Source of the DNA: Promethearchaeota archaeon
GTDB taxonomy: Archaea > Asgardarchaeota > Lokiarchaeia > Sigyniarchaeales > SOKP01
Length of the DNA stretch: 64,000 bases
Direction: 5' to 3'
Assembly: GCA_048938855.1 (NCBI GenBank)
Contig: JBHLLT010000002.1
Location: 1-64,000 of the forward strand
Under the pieces are notes generated by a model. The model did no database searches, was not told the DNA's origin, and saw only the letters and a program-made list of their open reading frames with translations. Position numbers and translations under genes: made by a program. Shown piece after piece: positions 41,348-61,943 of this stretch (the first letter of the stretch is position 1; every line of letters starts with the position of its first letter).

Positions 41348-41440
41348 GGCCCTTGACGGTTGGAGTGGTCTCTGACGCTGGGCTTCAAACCCAGTTATCC
41401 TGCGGAGGGATAGGGGTTCGATTCCCCTCGAGGGCCGCCA
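41348..41440 (+). tRNA. selC: tRNA-Sec (anticodon UCA), 9/4 fold, CCA encoded
   Basis: 9-bp acceptor GGCCCTTGA/TCGAGGGCC, 7-bp D stem, CTGGG-CTTCAAA-CCCAG, long variable arm, 4-bp T stem GGGG-TTCGATT-CCCC, G73-CCA. Confidence 0.97.
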
Positions 41441-41452
41441 ATAATAATTAAA

Positions 41453-42829
41453 GTGTTTTTTATGGTTGATTTTAGCAAAATTATTGATTTTTTTAATAAA
41501 AAGAATATACCTGAAAATATGTTAAATAGAGGTCAGCTTGTTTTAAATGAGTTTTTAAGACCAATAAAAATATTTTTTGAACAAAAAGCTGCACCCAAGG
41601 ATCCTTGGACTGATGAACAAATAGAGTTCCTTCTTCAAGTTTTATCAAATATGGACACAGATAAAGACATTAATGCTGCTAGAGTAGGTGAAAGAGAAGC
41701 AAGGATTGCCTCAAAACTACATTTGAAGACTTCAGCAGGATTTTGTCATGGTGTTGGAAGAAGTGGCTTTTTAACAGCTGCTCAACCAAAAGCACCAGGA
41801 GGCTCAATAATGTATGAATTATCAAACTATTTAGCTCGAAATATATTGAGAGAAAATGGGTTACCAAACATAAAAGATGCTATAATAACACCTGTATGTA
41901 CAGGAATGTCATTAGCATTAGCATTAGGAGCTTTAAATCCTTGGCAGTGTGATAGTAATTCGGTTTATAAACGAACTGTTTTAGTTCCCCAGATAGATCA
42001 TAAATCACTTTTAAAATCAATTAACCTTATGGGTTTTAAGGCAAAAATAGTTCCAGGGAAGATTTTTGGAGATGCTGTAAGAATACCAATTGGAGATATT
42101 AAAAAAAATTTAGACGAAGATTGTTTTGCAATTATCTCAGTAACTAGCTTTTTTCCACCTCGAGAACATGATGATATAAAGGAAATTTCTAAATTTGCAA
42201 AAGAAAACAATCTTGTGCATATTGTCATTAACGCATATGGGGTTCAAAGTCCAGAATGGATGAAATTGATTCGTTCAGCAATAGATGCAGGAAGAGTAGA
42301 CGCTATTATTCAGTCTACAGACAAAAATTTTCTAACACCCGTAGGAGGAGCAATAATAGCATCACCTATAAAAGAAAATATAGTAAAGATTAGCCAAGCA
42401 TATGCTGGTCGTGCTTCTGCTACTCCAGTTGTGAATTTTCTAATTTCAATCTTATCATTGGGGATCTCTGGTTATCAAAAGTTAATTGAACAACAACAAA
42501 ATAACCGTAAAATTCTTGAAATAAAACTCAGAGCAGTTGCAAATAAAATAAATGAGAGAATACTTGATATTTATAATCCAGTTGCAGTCGCATTATCATT
42601 GGAAAACATGAAAGATGAGCATCTATATGCTCTTGGTGGAGCATTGTATAATTTAAGAGTAACAGGACCAAGAGTATATAATCCAAAAGATAATATATTT
42701 GGTACCTGTTGTAGTGATTATCTAACTCCATATATCGTAATGAATGCCGCAATTGGAGCAACTGAGAAAGATATAATTTCTGCTGTAGAGAGATTTGAAA
42801 AAGCATATAATCAAGTAGTTCAATCATAA
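41453..42829 (+). CDS. spcS: O-phosphoseryl-tRNA(Sec) selenium transferase SepSecS
   Basis: GEREAR, HGVGRSG..A.QPKAPG, TGMSL, DHKS, NAYGVQ, QSTDKNF (PLP lysine), YAGRASA; directly downstream of tRNA-Sec. Confidence 0.96.
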   Translation: MFFMVDFSKIIDFFNKKNIPENMLNRGQLVLNEFLRPIKIFFEQKAAPKDPWTDEQIEFLLQVLSNMDTDKDINAARVGEREARIASKLHLKTSAGFCHGVGRSGFLTAAQPKAPGGSIMYELSNYLARNILRENGLPNIKDAIITPVCTGMSLALALGALNPWQCDSNSVYKRTVLVPQIDHKSLLKSINLMGFKAKIVPGKIFGDAVRIPIGDIKKNLDEDCFAIISVTSFFPPREHDDIKEISKFAKENNLVHIVINAYGVQSPEWMKLIRSAIDAGRVDAIIQSTDKNFLTPVGGAIIASPIKENIVKISQAYAGRASATPVVNFLISILSLGISGYQKLIEQQQNNRKILEIKLRAVANKINERILDIYNPVAVALSLENMKDEHLYALGGALYNLRVTGPRVYNPKDNIFGTCCSDYLTPYIVMNAAIGATEKDIISAVERFEKAYNQVVQS

Positions 42830-52382: not shown

Positions 52383-52976
52383 CTAAACATCTGGAAATTC
52401 CAAAGATTTTGCTTTTTGACCAGCAAACATTCCTCCCATACTACCAGAAGCTTGACTTTGAAGTTTGAGAAGCCTTTGAACAATAGTGTTAAGTCCTAAA
52501 GAACAAAGGAAATACCATGCGGTGAAATTTATAAAACGAGGACCTGCTGCGATAAACGCGCCAATTAAGGGAACATCATTTGCATTCATAGGAGACAATG
52601 CAACAGCTTTACCAGTAAATAATGTATTTACAAAAAAAAAGATAATGATCATTGGAAGAAATGTTACACAAGCTGGCTTCATTCTTTGCAGAGACATCCT
52701 TTGTTGAGTTTGTTTAAACATAGCATCTTTGCGTTCCCATCTTTTTCGAGCCTTTCTATAGCGTTCAGGGTCGATCTCTGCTAATTCAATTATTTTTTGC
52801 TTCTCTTCTTGATGAGCTTTAATTTGTATCTGTTTGCGGTTTAATTCATTGGTGTCTACCAATAACTTCGTTAAAGCTGCAGTAATTAAAGCTGTAGTGA
52901 CAGCTAATAGTAGAACAGCTAACATTGAACCTGGGGGAGTAGTAATAAAGTCCAAAAAGGCATTTTGTAACAACAT
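52383..52976 (-). CDS. DUF106 / EMC3-TMCO1 family membrane insertase (Oxa1 superfamily)
   Basis: TM - coiled coil - KP..VTFLPMII TM - WYFLCS motif; downstream of secY. Confidence 0.9.
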   Translation of the reverse strand: MLLQNAFLDFITTPPGSMLAVLLLAVTTALITAALTKLLVDTNELNRKQIQIKAHQEEKQKIIELAEIDPERYRKARKRWERKDAMFKQTQQRMSLQRMKPACVTFLPMIIIFFFVNTLFTGKAVALSPMNANDVPLIGAFIAAGPRFINFTAWYFLCSLGLNTIVQRLLKLQSQASGSMGGMFAGQKAKSLEFPDV

Positions 52977-53181
52977 CTTTATATTTTAATATCTCGAAAT
53001 TATTTTAAAGTTTTCATTTAGTATTTTTTTTGATAATTTTCATCTAAAGCATTTTATATTGTCTGCTAGCAGAAATTATTTTACTGAACACAATAATCCT
53101 AAATTATAAGTTTACTTTTTTTTTTTTTATCTCTAGAGATATTTTCTACGCTCAATTAGAAGAAAACAACTGAACCGTGAT

Positions 53182-54696
53182 CTAATCCATTCCTAACATT
53201 GCCCGCAAACCGGGATACTGTGAGGCAGCTAACTCCTTTGATATTTGTTCAGCATATTGGTGAATTATCCCTATAGCTATAAGAAGGCCCGTACCAGAGC
53301 TCAACGCACCTAGAGTATCTGCGCCAAAACTGAGACTAGCGATAATAAAGCCGTTCAAAATGACGAGAGTAGGTATATATCTTTTCAGGATTCTTTCGAT
53401 TACCTTAGAGGAGCTTCTAAATCCGGGAATCTGCATTTTTGAATCTATAATTTGTTGAGCGATATCACGTGGCGCCAGGCCTGAAACTTCGACCCAGACA
53501 CGGCCGAGCATTACACATAAAACTATAAATATCGCTAAATAAATAAATCCTCTAGCTGGATTTAAAATAAAGTCATCTATTCCCCTTGGTGGAGTAAGTA
53601 AATATACTAGTCCTCCCGTTGGAACAAGTTGGGTGCCTTGAGTTGATCCACCTTGTACTTCGTTAAATGTGCCTATCAAGTTAACCCAGAAATCGGGGAT
53701 AAGCCCCCCATTCTCAGCACGTATTCCAGAATGTGGACCAGCAAGTAATTGTGCAAAAAATAATATATTTGCATACAATGCATTGACTAAAATAACAGGA
53801 ATGTTTGAAACATAAAGTAATTTCATTGGATATTTACTTTTAAAGCCTCGACTACCACGATATGCCAACGGTATCTCTACACGCGTTGATTCGAACCAAA
53901 TTACAATAACAAAGATCACAATGGTAGTAATTACACCTAATAGAGACGGATATCTATTACCCGCACCAAAAACTCGGATAAATAGTGTGTTTAATTGCCC
54001 TGCATTGTCAGGATTACCATCAAACAATGCTTGAAAGAATGCTATTACAACCCCTCTAGCTAACCCATCAGCAGGATTATCTGTTGCCGTAGGTAGGGGT
54101 GTAGGAATAAGACTAAAACAGTTCCAAAAGATTTGTCCAGCAATACCTGCAGCTATGAACAAAGAAACACCACTTCCAAGCCCCCAACCTTTTTGGAGGA
54201 CTTCATCAAGTAAGATGATAACAATTCCTGCAAAAAGTAATTGAAAAAACACAAAAAATGCTCTATCTATAGCTAATGGTCCAAAAGCTCCACCCATAAT
54301 ATATGCTGTAGCATTGAAGATTGTTAAAAATATGGAAAGTACTTTTTGTGCTCCACTAAACATTGCTCTATCATATGGATCAGACATATTTACTTTGATT
54401 ATTCGAGAACCAAGAAGTAATTGCATAATTAGTCCAGCTGTGACTATAGGACCAATACCTAATTCTGTTAACATTCCCCTCTGACTAGCAAGGATAACCC
54501 TTAGCCAATAAAAATAATCTGTTGATTGTTGAATATTTACACCATAGAGGGGAACATTGCTCATAAGTAAGTAAATTATCAAAACAATAGCAGTCCAGAT
54601 AAATTTCTCTTTAAATGTAACTTCACGTTGTGGCTGTTTTATTTCTGGCATTATTTTTACAAACGGAGTGAAGAATTTAAGGAACTTACCAGGCAT
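53182..54696 (-). CDS. secY: Protein translocase SecY/Sec61-alpha
   Basis: EK..WT, ELGIGPIVTAGLIMQLL, GWGLGSGVSLFIA, YP.KLLYVSNIPVIL, SGTGLL. Confidence 0.98.
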   Translation of the reverse strand: MPGKFLKFFTPFVKIMPEIKQPQREVTFKEKFIWTAIVLIIYLLMSNVPLYGVNIQQSTDYFYWLRVILASQRGMLTELGIGPIVTAGLIMQLLLGSRIIKVNMSDPYDRAMFSGAQKVLSIFLTIFNATAYIMGGAFGPLAIDRAFFVFFQLLFAGIVIILLDEVLQKGWGLGSGVSLFIAAGIAGQIFWNCFSLIPTPLPTATDNPADGLARGVVIAFFQALFDGNPDNAGQLNTLFIRVFGAGNRYPSLLGVITTIVIFVIVIWFESTRVEIPLAYRGSRGFKSKYPMKLLYVSNIPVILVNALYANILFFAQLLAGPHSGIRAENGGLIPDFWVNLIGTFNEVQGGSTQGTQLVPTGGLVYLLTPPRGIDDFILNPARGFIYLAIFIVLCVMLGRVWVEVSGLAPRDIAQQIIDSKMQIPGFRSSSKVIERILKRYIPTLVILNGFIIASLSFGADTLGALSSGTGLLIAIGIIHQYAEQISKELAASQYPGLRAMLGMD

Positions 54697-54937
54697 TTTT
54701 AATCAGGAATATTAATTTTTTCGATTGTATTATTTTGAGTTCACTTGAGCAAATAACAAATTCTAAAAAATGAAATGTAATAAAAAAAAAAATAGATTTT
54801 TAAAAAAAGTTTACTATTTGAAAACGGAATTTTTATGATAACCAAATAGTCAATTGTTATATTTAAAAAAAAATAAATAAAAAATATTAACTTCTTTGAG
54901 ATTGAAAATATAAATATCTTCAATAAATGGGAGTTTC

Positions 54938-55228
54938 TTAGAAGAGACTTCCAATACCGGTAGGTTCTTCTTCTTCTGGTTCTTCTTTCTTCTTCTTTTC
55001 TTCCTTTTTCTCTTCTTTTTGAGCTCCTTTTGGAGCAGCAGCAACAGGTGCAACACTTGCAGATTTTATAATATCTTCAATCTTTGTTCCTTTTAAACCC
55101 GCAATTAGTTTAGATATTTCAGTTTTATCAATTTTAGCACCCGCGGCAGTTAATACTTTTTCTACGTTTGATTCGGTAATTTTACCTCCAACTTTATGAA
55201 GTAATAAAGCTGCATAAATGCTTTCCAT
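54938..55228 (-). CDS. rpl12: Ribosomal stalk protein aP1/L12
   Basis: ME.IYAALLLH..G, Ala-rich hinge, acidic tail G.GSLF. Confidence 0.96.
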   Translation of the reverse strand: MESIYAALLLHKVGGKITESNVEKVLTAAGAKIDKTEISKLIAGLKGTKIEDIIKSASVAPVAAAPKGAQKEEKKEEKKKKEEPEEEEPTGIGSLF

Positions 55229-55302
55229 TTTATTTAACCTCTTTTTTATTTTTTTATCATTATTTTTGTATTTTTTAATTTACTTTTCAAAAAAATTATA
55301 AT

Positions 55303-56199
55303 TTATCCAAAGAGTCCTCCAATTCCAACGTCTTCTTCTTCAGATTCCTCTTCTTTTGGTTTTTCTTCATTGTCTTTAATCTCTTCTTCCTCAGTAAGAA
55401 CTTGAATCCCCTCCCCGAAGATAATAGCATTTAGGCTATTTGCTTCAGAAACAGCTTTTCGAATATAATCTTCGGACATATCTTCTATAAAGTAGGGCAT
55501 CTCAAATAGAATGGCTAATGCTTCTCTATAAGCCTTTGCAAAATCTTGTCTAAAATGTTCTATATCCATATACAAGATATCTTCGGGTACAATTTCACCA
55601 TCACTCCAAGCAAAGTGAATTTTAATCAAGGATTCTATCGGAGTAATTCCTAATTTTTTCAAAACTGCTGCCTGTTTTACGTCTACAATATCACCCGCTT
55701 TATGTGTTCTTGTATCCTCTCGAACGTGAATAGTATCATTCATAATTCTGGTTGGTAATCGTAATGTCATATTCAACTCACTAATAACTTGCCCTGTTGG
55801 CAATCCAGTATCCCCCGCAGGAACCCAAATATCCACGGGGGTGACTTCATTAGGTTTTGCTGGAACCATCCACTCGTTTTCAAGGAATATATTCTTTAAT
55901 TCAAAGATATCAAGATTAGTAAAAACTAAACTCGATTGACCTGGGATATGATTAACAAATTCATCTAAATTTTTCTTTTTAGATTCGTTTTTGAATTGTT
56001 CTATTGCACGGAGTTGAAGAGATTTTTTAGACATTCTAAATACTGCTTTTCCTCTTAGAATTTTCCGCATTGTTTGTATTTGCATATCGTTAATATGAGC
56101 AACTTCGATCACAATAACATTTTTATAATTTTTAAATAAATCAACCAATTGATTAATTTCATTTATTTTCCATTGTGGAATATGCTTATTTTTAATCAT
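55303..56199 (-). CDS. rpl10: Ribosomal protein uL10/P0
   Basis: IPQWK, Q.MRK.LRG, VPAGDTG, L.KLGI.P, acidic tail GIGGLFG. Confidence 0.96.
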   Translation of the reverse strand: MIKNKHIPQWKINEINQLVDLFKNYKNVIVIEVAHINDMQIQTMRKILRGKAVFRMSKKSLQLRAIEQFKNESKKKNLDEFVNHIPGQSSLVFTNLDIFELKNIFLENEWMVPAKPNEVTPVDIWVPAGDTGLPTGQVISELNMTLRLPTRIMNDTIHVREDTRTHKAGDIVDVKQAAVLKKLGITPIESLIKIHFAWSDGEIVPEDILYMDIEHFRQDFAKAYREALAILFEMPYFIEDMSEDYIRKAVSEANSLNAIIFGEGIQVLTEEEEIKDNEEKPKEEESEEEDVGIGGLFG

Positions 56200-56203
56200 A
56201 AGT

Positions 56204-56932
56204 TTACACCCCTATTGTTTTTAAGAATTCTTCTGTTACTTTAACAGGTGTCCCCATTGTAGACTTTAAATACATTGATTTAAAATTATTGAATCTATGA
56301 GGCATTTGATCTGCTATAAAATTCACGACAGTTTTCATATTTTCAAATAAATGTTCAGAGTTCATAGATTTTTTTCCTATCTTGGCAAATATAATAGGTT
56401 GCTTTTTCATCTGAATTCTAATAATTTTTTTATATCGTTCATAAGCTACTCTTAATTCATCTGGACTGGAAATAATTCCATATCCTGTAGGGAAAGGTTT
56501 GGGTATTTTACCGACGGGACCAAGGAATCTTGCTAGGTATCGAGCAACATCTCTCATCATTTTATCTTCTACGATAAAAAATTCATACTTTTTGGCAAAC
56601 TTTTTCTTAATCTTTTTTTCTTCGTTATTTAAATTAACTAAACCATCTGAATCAATGGTATCAATACCTAATTTTTTTGCTTCAAGCAATATCTCATCAG
56701 AAGCAATCACACAAATATTAGGTTTATCATTTACAGTGATATCATTAGATAAGATAATTTCCTTATCAATTCGGTTTTTAGGATCATTTAAATTAACATC
56801 TTTAATATTAATAATTAGGTCAATAGATTCATCAAATTTTCTAACTTTATCTTTAAAACCATCTTTTTTTATAACTGAAAAGTCTATAGCAGCATTTAAT
56901 GACTTTCTTAATAATTTATCATCTACTTTCAA
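56204..56932 (-). CDS. rpl1: Ribosomal protein uL1
   Basis: RKFDESIDL.IN, LGP.GK.PKP, Y.KSTMG.PV. Confidence 0.96.
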   Translation of the reverse strand: MKVDDKLLRKSLNAAIDFSVIKKDGFKDKVRKFDESIDLIINIKDVNLNDPKNRIDKEIILSNDITVNDKPNICVIASDEILLEAKKLGIDTIDSDGLVNLNNEEKKIKKKFAKKYEFFIVEDKMMRDVARYLARFLGPVGKIPKPFPTGYGIISSPDELRVAYERYKKIIRIQMKKQPIIFAKIGKKSMNSEHLFENMKTVVNFIADQMPHRFNNFKSMYLKSTMGTPVKVTEEFLKTIGV

Positions 56933-56938
56933 TTTTAA

Positions 56939-57506
56939 TCATTCACCTCTTATTTTATCATCATACTCTCCATTGTCAATTCGTTTTTGAATAATCCTAG
57001 GATCCTCTCCTTCTACTGTTATACCTACTGACAATGCAGTTCCCAGCACTGTTTTTACTGCCGCTTTATAGGTCTTATCCAAAAATTTCTCTCTTTTACC
57101 TTCGACTACATTTTGAATTTGCTCAAGTGTCAAATTGCCAATTTTTTTCTCAGCTGTAGCAGATGTACCTTTTTCAGCACCAACTTCTTTAAGCAACAAT
57201 GATGCTGTAGAGGGTGTTTCAATGAAAATTTCAAACTGTTTTGTTTCTGGATCGCATTCTATTCTTACGGGTACAGTTAATCCTTTAAAAACCATCGTTT
57301 GCTTGTTTATCTCGTCCACTACGTCTTTAATATTTATACCTGTGGGGCCTACGGAGGGGCCTTTACCATTGCTTGACAAAAGCGATATGCTTTATGTAAT
57401 AGGCGGCCCTCCTGATGCATTTGGGGTCTAATCGAAACGATTATTAAAGATATACACTCCCACCAGTCACAAGAGCCTTAACAATAATTTTACCTTTATC
57501 ACTCAC
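56939..57506 (-). CDS. rpl11: Ribosomal protein uL11, 164 aa after splicing of three exons: 57506-57457, 57419-57399, 57362-56939
   Basis: Joined exons (50+21+424=495 nt) read [44 protein letters not shown]...; GTG start with GGTGA 6 nt upstream; heads the L11-L1-L10-L12 cluster. Confidence 0.9.
57363..57398 (-). other. rpl11 intron 2 (36 nt, relaxed BHB-like)
   Basis: GGAGGGCC-GCCU-AU^U...UGGU-AA^A-GGCCCCUCC: strong exon-exon helix, 3 of 4 central pairs, internal hairpin AAAGC/GCUUU; in-frame UAA. Confidence 0.82.
57420..57456 (-). other. rpl11 intron 1 (37 nt, BHB-like)
   Basis: UGGG-AG^U...CCCA-AA^U: perfect 4-bp central helix with two 3-nt bulges; internal hairpin UAAUCG-UUU-CGAUUA; contains an in-frame stop and shifts the frame. 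Confidence 0.85.
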
Positions 57507-57757
57507 ATATACTCACCGTTTATAATTGAAAATCTTTGTTAAAAAAATATCTAAAAAAATATGAACGCTAAATTAATACAAATTTCTTTCCAATATCTTT
57601 AAATATATTGAAACCGCTTTAATTTGCGTCCTAAGTTTCTTAGAATAATTTTTTTAAACTTAGTGAGTTTTAGAATTAAGCAATATTAAAAAATTTTATC
57701 TTTCAAAAGGAGACTTTCAAAAATAAAGCAAAAAAAATCATTAAGGAGTTTGAAAAG

Positions 57758-57943
57758 TTAACCTCTACAACAAAGTCTTCTTCCAAATTCGAGATTACAC
57801 TTATAATATTCTTCAGACAAAATTTCTTTTACAGTATCATAATCTAAATTTACTATTTTAGCTATATCTTCAATAGCGTTTCCTGGAGTGGATATTAATT
57901 GACAAATTTTTTTTTTAATTTCTTCAGTAATTTCTACGGTCAT
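57758..57943 (-). CDS. Small HTH-like protein with Cys-rich C-terminus
   Basis: IEDIAKIVNLDYDTVKEIL helix-turn-helix pattern; C-terminal CNLEFGRRLCCRG. Confidence 0.6.
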   Translation of the reverse strand: MTVEITEEIKKKICQLISTPGNAIEDIAKIVNLDYDTVKEILSEEYYKCNLEFGRRLCCRG

Positions 57944-57974: not shown

Positions 57975-59120
57975 TTAAGTAGTAAATTTTATAATTTCAT
58001 CAACAATCTTGTAATTTGGTAAAATTAAATCTGCTGCTCCACTTTCGGCGGCGGCTTTGGGCATCCCATATAATATACTTGTTTCTTCAGATTCAGCAAT
58101 TGTTTTACCTCCTTCTTGCTTGATTGCCTTCAATCCAGAAGCCCCATCAGTTCCCATTCCTGTCAGTAAAATACCAAGCGTTTTTTCCTTATATACTCGA
58201 GCTGTTGAAAAAAACAATACATCGACAGAAGGTCTACAAAAATTCACAGGCTCCCCTTCATAAGTTCTTATACAAGGTTTATTATCTTTAACAATAACTT
58301 GCATATACATATCTCCGGGTGAAAGATAAATTATGCCTGATTTTATCTCTTCATTGTTCATACCTATTTTTACATTGGCTTTACATATATTTTTTAAAGA
58401 TGTGGCAAATTGTCGCATAAACAGATGGTTTAGATGCTGTACGACTAGAATTGGTACTGGAAAGTTTTTAGGGATCTCACTAAGAATCGTTCTTAAAGTT
58501 CTTGGACCACCTACACTCGCCCCTATTACTATTATTTTTGTCGGTACAGTTTTTATGGTAATCGGAGAGAGATCTAAAAAGTAATCCTCTGATCTTTGTT
58601 CTAATGACCTTTCTAATTCTATATAGGGGCCTCCCTTTGTTTTAATTTTTACTTCTTGGCTTTTCTGAATAAAAATATCTTTACTTAATAACCTTATTTT
58701 GTTATCAATTTTATTTACTTTTGCGATGTCTGCCATAATGATTTTTGAAATTAATTTGTCTTTAATAGTTGGAATTACCTCCTTCCATATTCCTTCAGGT
58801 TTAACGATATAATCATAAAATTTTAGAATAAGGGGAATATCAAGAGAATCTATATTGCTAGGATCTTTATCAGATAACACTATAGTAGTAATGTCAAACT
58901 GCTTAATTATAAGATAAAAAGGTGAGTACCAGGTTTTATTTTCAAACTCAATGTCGAGTATTAATAAATCAGGATTCTTGCTTTTAATTATTTTAATAGC
59001 TTCTTGTTCATTCCGAACAAGATCAACTACTTCTGTCTCTTTATGAGAAGAAAGCATATCAGATAGTAGAGTTCTGCGGTATGCTGACTCAGAAGCTATT
59101 AGTACTCTTTTAGGCATCAT
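57975..59120 (-). CDS. cheB: Protein-glutamate methylesterase CheB with atypical receiver domain
   Basis: GASVGGP (Ser), VVQHL (His), RPSVDVLF, LTGMGTDG (Asp), YGMP. Confidence 0.92.
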   Translation of the reverse strand: MMPKRVLIASESAYRRTLLSDMLSSHKETEVVDLVRNEQEAIKIIKSKNPDLLILDIEFENKTWYSPFYLIIKQFDITTIVLSDKDPSNIDSLDIPLILKFYDYIVKPEGIWKEVIPTIKDKLISKIIMADIAKVNKIDNKIRLLSKDIFIQKSQEVKIKTKGGPYIELERSLEQRSEDYFLDLSPITIKTVPTKIIVIGASVGGPRTLRTILSEIPKNFPVPILVVQHLNHLFMRQFATSLKNICKANVKIGMNNEEIKSGIIYLSPGDMYMQVIVKDNKPCIRTYEGEPVNFCRPSVDVLFFSTARVYKEKTLGILLTGMGTDGASGLKAIKQEGGKTIAESEETSILYGMPKAAAESGAADLILPNYKIVDEIIKFTT

Positions 59121-61298: not shown

Positions 61299-61943
61299 AT
61301 GAAAAAGTTAATATTATTCGGGCCCCCAGGAGCTGGTAAAGGAACTTTTAGTTCACAGATTAAAGTAGTTATACCTCAAATCGTTCATATAAGTACTGGA
61401 GATATATTTCGTGAAAATCTAAAAAATGAAACTCCTCTCGGATTAAAAGCTAAATCGTATATGGATAAAGGCGAATTAGTACCTGATGATGTAACCATTG
61501 AAATGGTGCGTGATAGATTAAATAAAGAAGATGTCAAGAAAAATGGTTTTATTCTTGATGGATTTCCTCGAACTTTACCTCAAGCTGAATCATTATCAGA
61601 TATAACCGAAGTAGATTTGCTCCTATTATTACAGGTTTCTAGAGATATTATATTTAAAAGAATTTTAGGTAGGTATGGTTGTAAATCCTGTGGAGAAATC
61701 TATAATAAATATACCCTCCCTCCGAAAGTTGAAGGAATATGTGATAAATGCGGTGCTGAGATCAAATTTGAGCAAAGAAATGATGACAATGAAGAAACAT
61801 TAAAAAGTAGATTAGACGCATATGAAAAAAATGCTAAACTTCTTATCAAATATTATAAAAAAAGAGGGAAGCTGAAGAAAATCGATGCAACCGATACATT
61901 AAGTTATACTGAGGATGAGATTAAAAAATTTATAGGATTATAA
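61299..61943 (+). CDS. adk: Adenylate kinase, bacterial-type long form with zinc lid
   Basis: GPPGAGKGT, HISTGDIFR, GELVPD, GFILDGFPRT, CKSC..CDKC lid, QR.DD. Confidence 0.95.
   Translation: MKKLILFGPPGAGKGTFSSQIKVVIPQIVHISTGDIFRENLKNETPLGLKAKSYMDKGELVPDDVTIEMVRDRLNKEDVKKNGFILDGFPRTLPQAESLSDITEVDLLLLLQVSRDIIFKRILGRYGCKSCGEIYNKYTLPPKVEGICDKCGAEIKFEQRNDDNEETLKSRLDAYEKNAKLLIKYYKKRGKLKKIDATDTLSYTEDEIKKFIGL

Follow-up and report, generated by a model that had tools for sequence, protein, structure and literature searches.

Relaxed bulge-helix-bulge inserts as probable mRNA introns in the ribosomal protein gene rpl11 of a family of Lokiarchaeia

The window analysed here, a 64,000-nucleotide stretch of a Promethearchaeota archaeon genome (GCA_048938855.1, contig JBHLLT010000002.1), contains a gene for ribosomal protein uL11, rpl11, that is interrupted close to its 5' end by two short inserts, A and B. 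To judge from the gene sequences, these are very likely genuine mRNA introns, each forming a relaxed bulge-helix-bulge (BHB) motif that would be cut by the splicing endonuclease EndA and joined by RtcB; the rpl11 mRNA very probably must be spliced. In the proposed mechanism, folding of the pre-mRNA would bring each insert together with its exons into a relaxed BHB; a two-subunit EndA would then make its cut behind the second base in each bulge, leaving the exons to be ligated by RtcB, the two introns probably being removed one after the other. Without both cuts, translation would end after 20–25 codons: the unspliced RNA reaches a stop after 20 codons, and the RNA from which A alone has been removed after 25. 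The two introns would belong to a family of 28–38-nt mRNA mini-introns of this Lokiarchaeia family, which share a pentaloop hairpin and are also present in other genes; they would spread and vanish mainly by lateral recombination in which the gene's entire 5' block is replaced and, rarely, be copied to a new site. The layout of the gene is given in Table 1.

Table 1. Features of rpl11 and its surroundings in the window (introns and functions are predicted)
Feature	Position	Strand	Description
rpl11 exon 1	57457..57506	(-)	50 nt; start codon GTG; codons 1-16 plus 2 nt of Ser17
Last 6 nt of exon 1		(-)	5' strand of the intron A central helix (57462-57459) and 5' bulge
Putative intron A	57420..57456	(-)	37 nt; phase 2, codon 17; frameshift and stop
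Elements within intron A		(-)	apex hairpin 57443-57429; 3' helix strand 57425-57422
Micro-exon A18-I24	57399..57419	(-)	21 nt
Putative intron B	57363..57398	(-)	36 nt; phase 2, codon 24; in-frame TAA
Elements within intron B		(-)	apex hairpin 57393-57379; 3' helix strand 57368-57365
rpl11 exon 3	56939..57362	(-)	uL11 match above NCBIfam cut-off
Sites D and C in exon 3			after cds nt 83 (D) and 100 (C); empty here, intron-bearing in relatives
GGTGAG, Shine-Dalgarno-like	57512..57517	(-)	upstream of the GTG start; common to many GTG-start alleles; putative function
Conserved upstream element	57588..57635	(-)	imperfect inverted repeat; kept in nearly all family loci
rpl1, rplP0 (uL10), rplP1	54938..56932	(-)	downstream of rpl11; same probable operon

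A preliminary description of this DNA had started from an open reading frame for an L11 lacking its N-terminus; this call is confirmed, and the TTG start chosen by the caller (57379) falls within intron B. The description had located the missing residues upstream, split by inserts of 37 and 36 nt with a stop in each and a frameshift in the first, and its coordinates, lengths and stops are borne out, as is the restoration of the frame by EndA-rule cuts after the second bulge base: exon 1, the micro-exon and exon 3 join into 495 nt encoding an unbroken 164-aa uL11 with its conserved 12-residue motif. The inserts are also present in the DNA of other datasets, as it had proposed to check. Run X1, possibly the source of the assembly, spans the whole insert stretch with 0 differences; a contig from another study (X6, record 31) bridges insert A, and insert B is found entire and with 0 differences in contigs of X2, X5 and X6, the flank on one side being limited to 19 nt. 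An intact rpl11 elsewhere, which the description had set against its own reading, is found in the source genome neither by tblastn nor with the Pfam L11_N model. In its probable operon, rpl11 heads rpl1, rplP0 and rplP1; no frame-breaking inserts are found in these three genes, and no interrupted genes in the remaining part of the ribosomal cluster of the window.

A spliced alignment of 90 distinct genomic rpl11 loci from related genomes, those nearest to the source genome being labelled mostly Promethearchaeota and including Loki_b32, provides the comparison of presence and absence that had been suggested, and the pattern is precise: 50 loci have one to three inserts, whereas 40 are intact. 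The inserts lie at exactly four places, after coding nucleotides 50 (A), 71 (B), 83 (D) and 100 (C), corresponding to codons 17, 24, 28 and 34 and all within 50 nt. They are combined in the 50 loci as C (16), B (9), A (7), AC (5), D (4), AB (3), ABC (3), AD (2) and BC (1), so that 20 genomic loci carry A and 16 carry B; as carriers are kin or share alleles, these counts show consistency and overstate the number of independent events. Among 48 further loci, mostly from metagenomes, 30 have inserts (33 inserts, no new site). Lengths range from 28 to 38 nt, and each of the 67 genomic inserts, if left in place, either shifts the frame or contains a stop; splicing restores the frame in every case. 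At the frame-restoring register, the four pairs of the central helix are complete in 59 of the 67 inserts and three of the four form in the other 8, compared with 2.9% of shuffled inserts reaching 4/4. At site A, the helix is 4/4 in all 20 carriers while its pair 1 is U-A in 10, U-G in 3 and A-U in 7, a compensatory change; at site B, three to four of the four pairs form in the 16 carriers. A draw of 151 Asgard genomes, which is a sample and not proof of absence outside the Lokiarchaeia family, contains truncated L11_N matches inside the family only, the listed matches outside it (~110 genomes) being all whole. The contigs of L153, L159, L168, G242:C63 and G260:C167 end within or beside rpl11 intron sites, as is expected if the intron state varies within populations.

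In terms of geometry, intron A forms all 4/4 pairs of its central helix and has an inner stem of 2 bp, so that the perfect 4-bp helix first described for it stands; its two 3-nt bulges do so only in part, as the 3' bulge is without a direct closing pair (G opposite G) in 20/20 carriers and the exon-exon helix begins ~4 nt further out. Of the GCCU/UGGU fold drawn for intron B, the strong exon-exon helix holds (5 bp, a bulged C and 3 bp), but just 3/4 central pairs form, owing to a U.U mismatch, and there is no inner pair. The strict canonical hBHBh' motif, in which both 3-nt bulges are closed directly by inner and outer helices, is found in neither A nor B and often at site D of relatives; A and B are best classed as relaxed BHB/BHL motifs. 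The micro-exon provides the outer helix of A as well as the outer and central helices of B, and the same GGAG bases are contested. By constrained folding, forming both motifs together costs 7.7 kcal/mol, A alone 4.1 and B alone 1.1, and either motif costs 1–2 kcal/mol once the other insert is gone; these costs suggest that splicing would be sequential, with B first weakly favoured, and a one-after-the-other order is also probable, since the outer helices of A and B draw on the same bases of the micro-exon.

The exons around the inserts carry a corresponding imprint. The helix-forming set of synonymous codons is found at site A in 18/19 carriers versus 0/69 non-carriers, at site B in 14/16 versus 2/72 and at site C in 25/25 versus 8/63; the frozen codons of site A include GTG13 and TCA19, which belong to the outer helix set back from the bulge. 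Part of this freezing could reflect shared ancestry of a block swapped between species, but synonymous identity is back at background a few codons away from sites B and C. Nonsynonymous differences per codon amount to 0.028 in carriers versus 0.037 in intronless genes over codons 17–34, and over codons 2–34 synonymous and nonsynonymous differences are similar in the two groups; the exons of carriers are thus under normal purifying selection and appear to be translated. Full-length L11 proteins with Ser27 (P0043, P0062) were considered as spliced copies and rejected, being intronless alleles of other lineages, and Ser27 failed as a marker of A+B alleles among rpl11 loci.

The source genome encodes two EndA paralogues above the TIGR00324 cut-off (C93:17001 and C34:19990) and an RtcB on C81. 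The C93 protein has what we take to be the Tyr/His/Lys triad pattern, and the C34 protein is without the presumed His; together they would constitute a two-subunit, hetero-oligomeric enzyme, with the putative roles of the subunits read from these residues. This two-subunit form is reported to be common in Asgard genomes (bioRxiv 10.64898/2026.10.13.758758), and 23 of the 35 tRNA calls of the source genome are longer than 95 nt, which fits intron-rich tRNAs. With the U.U mismatch of B and the unclosed 3' bulge of A, cleavage would need a permissive enzyme; in one case, an (alpha-beta)2 EndA that lacks the specificity loop displays limited BHL activity only (PMC12397907). Taken together, the precise presence and absence at BHB cuts, the compensatory helix change, the frozen codons, the purifying selection and the co-occurrence of EndA and RtcB strongly support the earlier proposal that this archaeon splices a ribosomal protein mRNA with its tRNA splicing machinery.

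Inserts at all four sites share a hairpin with a 5-nt loop of consensus C-AWWUC-G, in which the U is conserved in 63, the C in 55 and the G in 54 of the 67 inserts. The loop is closed by C-G on a stem of at least 4 bp in 41/67 inserts versus 1.6% in the null. In A, C and D the hairpin is separated from the 3' cut by 13–15 nt; in B, 9 nt separate it from the 5' cut. Known EndA does not need such a conserved apex loop, and the C-AWWUC-G apex is not evident in the tRNA introns of the source genome. Tentatively, and with the balance tilted against it, these inserts may be a mini-intron family that is actively spreading and whose pentaloop is read by a trans-acting factor serving mobility or splicing control. 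Were this the case, splicing would be a switch for the ribosomal stalk operon as well as for other genes, and the 5' block of rpl11 would be a cassette whose diversity is kept by selection and exchanged between species.

An explanation by assembly or sequencing error might be raised for a metagenome-assembled genome with a contamination estimate of 7%, but it is refuted, its probability being negligible: dozens of independent genomes have homologous inserts, as do DNA contigs from other studies. It is also very improbable that the ribosome skips the inserts and that no splicing takes place, as in the bypassing of T4 gene 60 or of the yeast mitochondrial byps. The rpl11 inserts do resemble byps in their size of 28–38 nt, their internal hairpin and their in-frame stops; however, take-off and landing codons match in just 10/67 of them (1/20 at A, 0/16 at B, 5/25 at C and 4/6 at D), and the conserved pairing runs from intron to exon at the EndA register. 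Scarcely credible is a decayed or unused 5' end, with a truncated L11 made from an internal start or an L11 that is dispensable here. A 146-aa ORF does open at TTG 57379, such truncated entries exist in databases, and L11 is dispensable in some organisms, knockouts being viable in several bacteria and the yeast rpl12 deletion viable but slow; yet this TTG sits inside insert B, codons 2–34 are equally constrained in carriers and intronless genes, and removal of every insert restores the frame exactly.

A slim chance is left to excision of the inserts from the DNA in part of the population, or from the RNA by another nuclease/ligase pair that reads the pentaloop and not the BHB. An apex loop conserved without being needed by known EndA may be bound by another factor, and the intronless locus L347, from which C is precisely absent, is 97% identical in its 5' exons to the C-bearing L131. 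Against these readings, no precise DNA joint with the source genome's codons is found in four runs, the end repeats are just 0–4 nt long and variable, and the geometry agrees with the EndA rule at all four sites. An exact search of JGI metagenome contigs for the doubly spliced junction returned 0 matches. Other classes of intron were tried and rejected: the GT...AG ends of spliceosomal-type introns occur in 0/67 inserts in any equivalent register, and the 28–38-nt inserts have no Rfam match, ribozyme core or ORF of a group I/II or homing-endonuclease intron.

Inserts of similar design are seen in other genes of the genome. The gene for RNase HII (G000 C81:88136, +) has a 30-nt BHB-type insert in its DEAGRG motif with the same pentaloop hairpin, and nearly all genus members searched have a stop-containing insert; that for AMP phosphorylase (G000 C74:52205, -) has a 30-nt BHB insert of the same design in the HSTGG motif, patchy in the genus; and that for an FGGY-like sugar kinase (G000 C25:37252, +) has a 30-nt frame-breaking insert in the DHGTGG motif, with a central helix of only 2/4, which is absent in G210. 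Interrupted genes amount to just 1–2 per 460–660 orthologues compared, a type of comparison (in one case 662 orthologues versus G023) that inserts shared with the reference escape, and a rough lower bound of about ten or more interrupted genes per genome is suggested. A noisy de novo scan, from whose list the RNase HII insert is missing and which gives no count, has as its top mini-intron candidates G000 C6:135358 (-), C70:92320 (+), C55:34930 (-) and C20:115397 (+). The cbf5 gene of the source genome is uninterrupted, and no close match of insert A or B elsewhere is among the BLAST matches listed (contig C49).

Intron states are scattered in a tree of the uL11 C-terminus and uL1, with sisters differing at 100% support, and in pairs that differ in introns identity drops from about -200 to +110 between flanks of >90%; the leader and the first ~110 nt of rpl11 form a block swapped between species, with the conserved upstream element at its upstream edge. 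Where two loci are at least 92% identical in the 3' gene, their 5' identity has a median of 0.96 for pairs of like intron state (n=27) and of 0.82 for pairs of unlike state (n=29). The 5' block of the source genome is 96% identical to that of L109 and the 3' part 79%, and its closest relatives by 3' gene (L348, L344) have an intronless block. This mosaic of 5' identity against the 3' gene argues that whole rpl11 5' alleles are swapped between species by recombination. The site C insert (codon 34) of L373 and L391 has a B-type hairpin and a new central helix, which makes it a probable case of an intron copied between sites. The diversity of the 5' block may come from the shielding of a conserved target site against a mobile element, from a role in feedback control of the stalk operon, or from neutral spread in a conserved GC-rich stretch. 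A virus carrying site A found no support: the exon pattern matched 11 viral contigs, none with L11.

Published splicing inside archaeal coding sequences is, in the literature searched, that of cbf5 alone, whose pre-mRNA intron is described in Desulfurococcales and Sulfolobales (Watanabe 2002; Yokobori 2009, PMC2738675); its motifs, which are often relaxed, are cut by a hetero-oligomeric EndA, and introns in other archaeal protein genes were predicted and unconfirmed as of 2009 (PMC2738675). The rpl11 introns share the testable features of such a cbf5-type EndA-spliced mRNA intron, and not of a strict canonical BHB: they are short (28–38 nt, against 16–44 nt in cbf5), interrupt a conserved motif close to the 5' end of the coding sequence, have a relaxed BHB in which a putative hetero-oligomeric EndA would cut behind the second base of the bulge, and are patchy among relatives. 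In cbf5 a single intron occupies a single site; it arose once, was lost from a few lineages and is proven by cDNA, whereas for rpl11 we infer splicing from the genes; and rpl11 differs in having four sites in a stretch of 50 nt, as many as three introns in one gene, a 21-nt micro-exon, a shared apex hairpin and lateral block exchange, as well as in being a ribosomal protein gene of an Asgard host. In Haloferax volcanii, the 5' UTR of HVO_1309 contains a BHB intron that is likewise an mRNA substrate of EndA, but is single, outside the coding sequence and frame-independent (PMC7714728). Several small BHB introns per gene, repeated gains and two EndA paralogues are likewise known for the non-canonical tRNA introns of Asgard archaea (PMC11291895; bioRxiv 10.64898/2026.10.13.758758) and Thermoproteales; these multi-intron genes are tRNA genes, unlike rpl11, and the word mRNA is absent from the text of the Asgard preprint. 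Archaeal rRNA introns with homing endonucleases are also spliced by EndA, patchy and moved laterally with their flanks, unlike the ~100 rpl11 inserts in having an ORF, none of the latter exceeding 38 nt or containing one. In the literature covered, which left subscription journals largely outside, cbf5 and the HVO_1309 5' UTR are the mRNA substrates of archaeal EndA found, the Asgard papers found treat tRNA introns only and none describes Asgard or L11 mRNA introns; the preliminary description likewise knew of no published multi-intron ribosomal protein gene in archaea.

If so conserved a ribosomal protein gene contains as many as three introns and an exon of just 21 nt, archaeal coding genes can be multi-exon; gene callers shorten these L11 proteins (146-, 128- and 118-aa entries). 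The four sites of rpl11 in many allele combinations offer a natural experiment on the arrival, movement and loss of BHB introns, how they arrive being left open by the 2026 Asgard tRNA preprint (bioRxiv 10.64898/2026.10.13.758758). The bearing on the origin of split genes claimed in the preliminary description is weak, because the chemistry is unrelated to that of spliceosomal introns and the gene was seen split in one family only; what holds is a parallel to eukaryotic split genes, not a claim of ancestry. A nearer counterpart in eukaryotes is mRNA splicing by an endonuclease plus a ligase, for example that of XBP1/HAC1.

Upstream of rpl11, the conserved element without Rfam match is probably the promoter or operator of the rpl11-rpl1-rplP0-rplP1 operon; its candidacy as an L1-binding leader was dropped, alifold supporting just two short hairpins. 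The region 57635-57563 (-) comprises the inverted repeat and, downstream of it, a GCGTTC box. Two leader types exist in the family, one with a GTG start and an SD-like GGTGA and one with an ATG start and no such sequence. Just upstream of rpl11 lie a 61-aa ORF (57758-57943; no NCBIfam match) and a CheB-like gene (57975-59120), both kept in close relatives; secY and a DUF106-like gene directly follow the stalk operon (window 52383-56932), and adk stands apart (61299-61943). Second, divergent rpl11 copies in two relatives (G230:C33:1052-1516 and G073:C671) are probably bin contamination. Elsewhere in the window, a tRNA-Sec gene (41348-41442) directly precedes a 458-aa ORF (41453-42829); in G006, a single 488-aa ORF runs through the tRNA-Sec region into the neighbouring gene, probably an effect of ORF extension.
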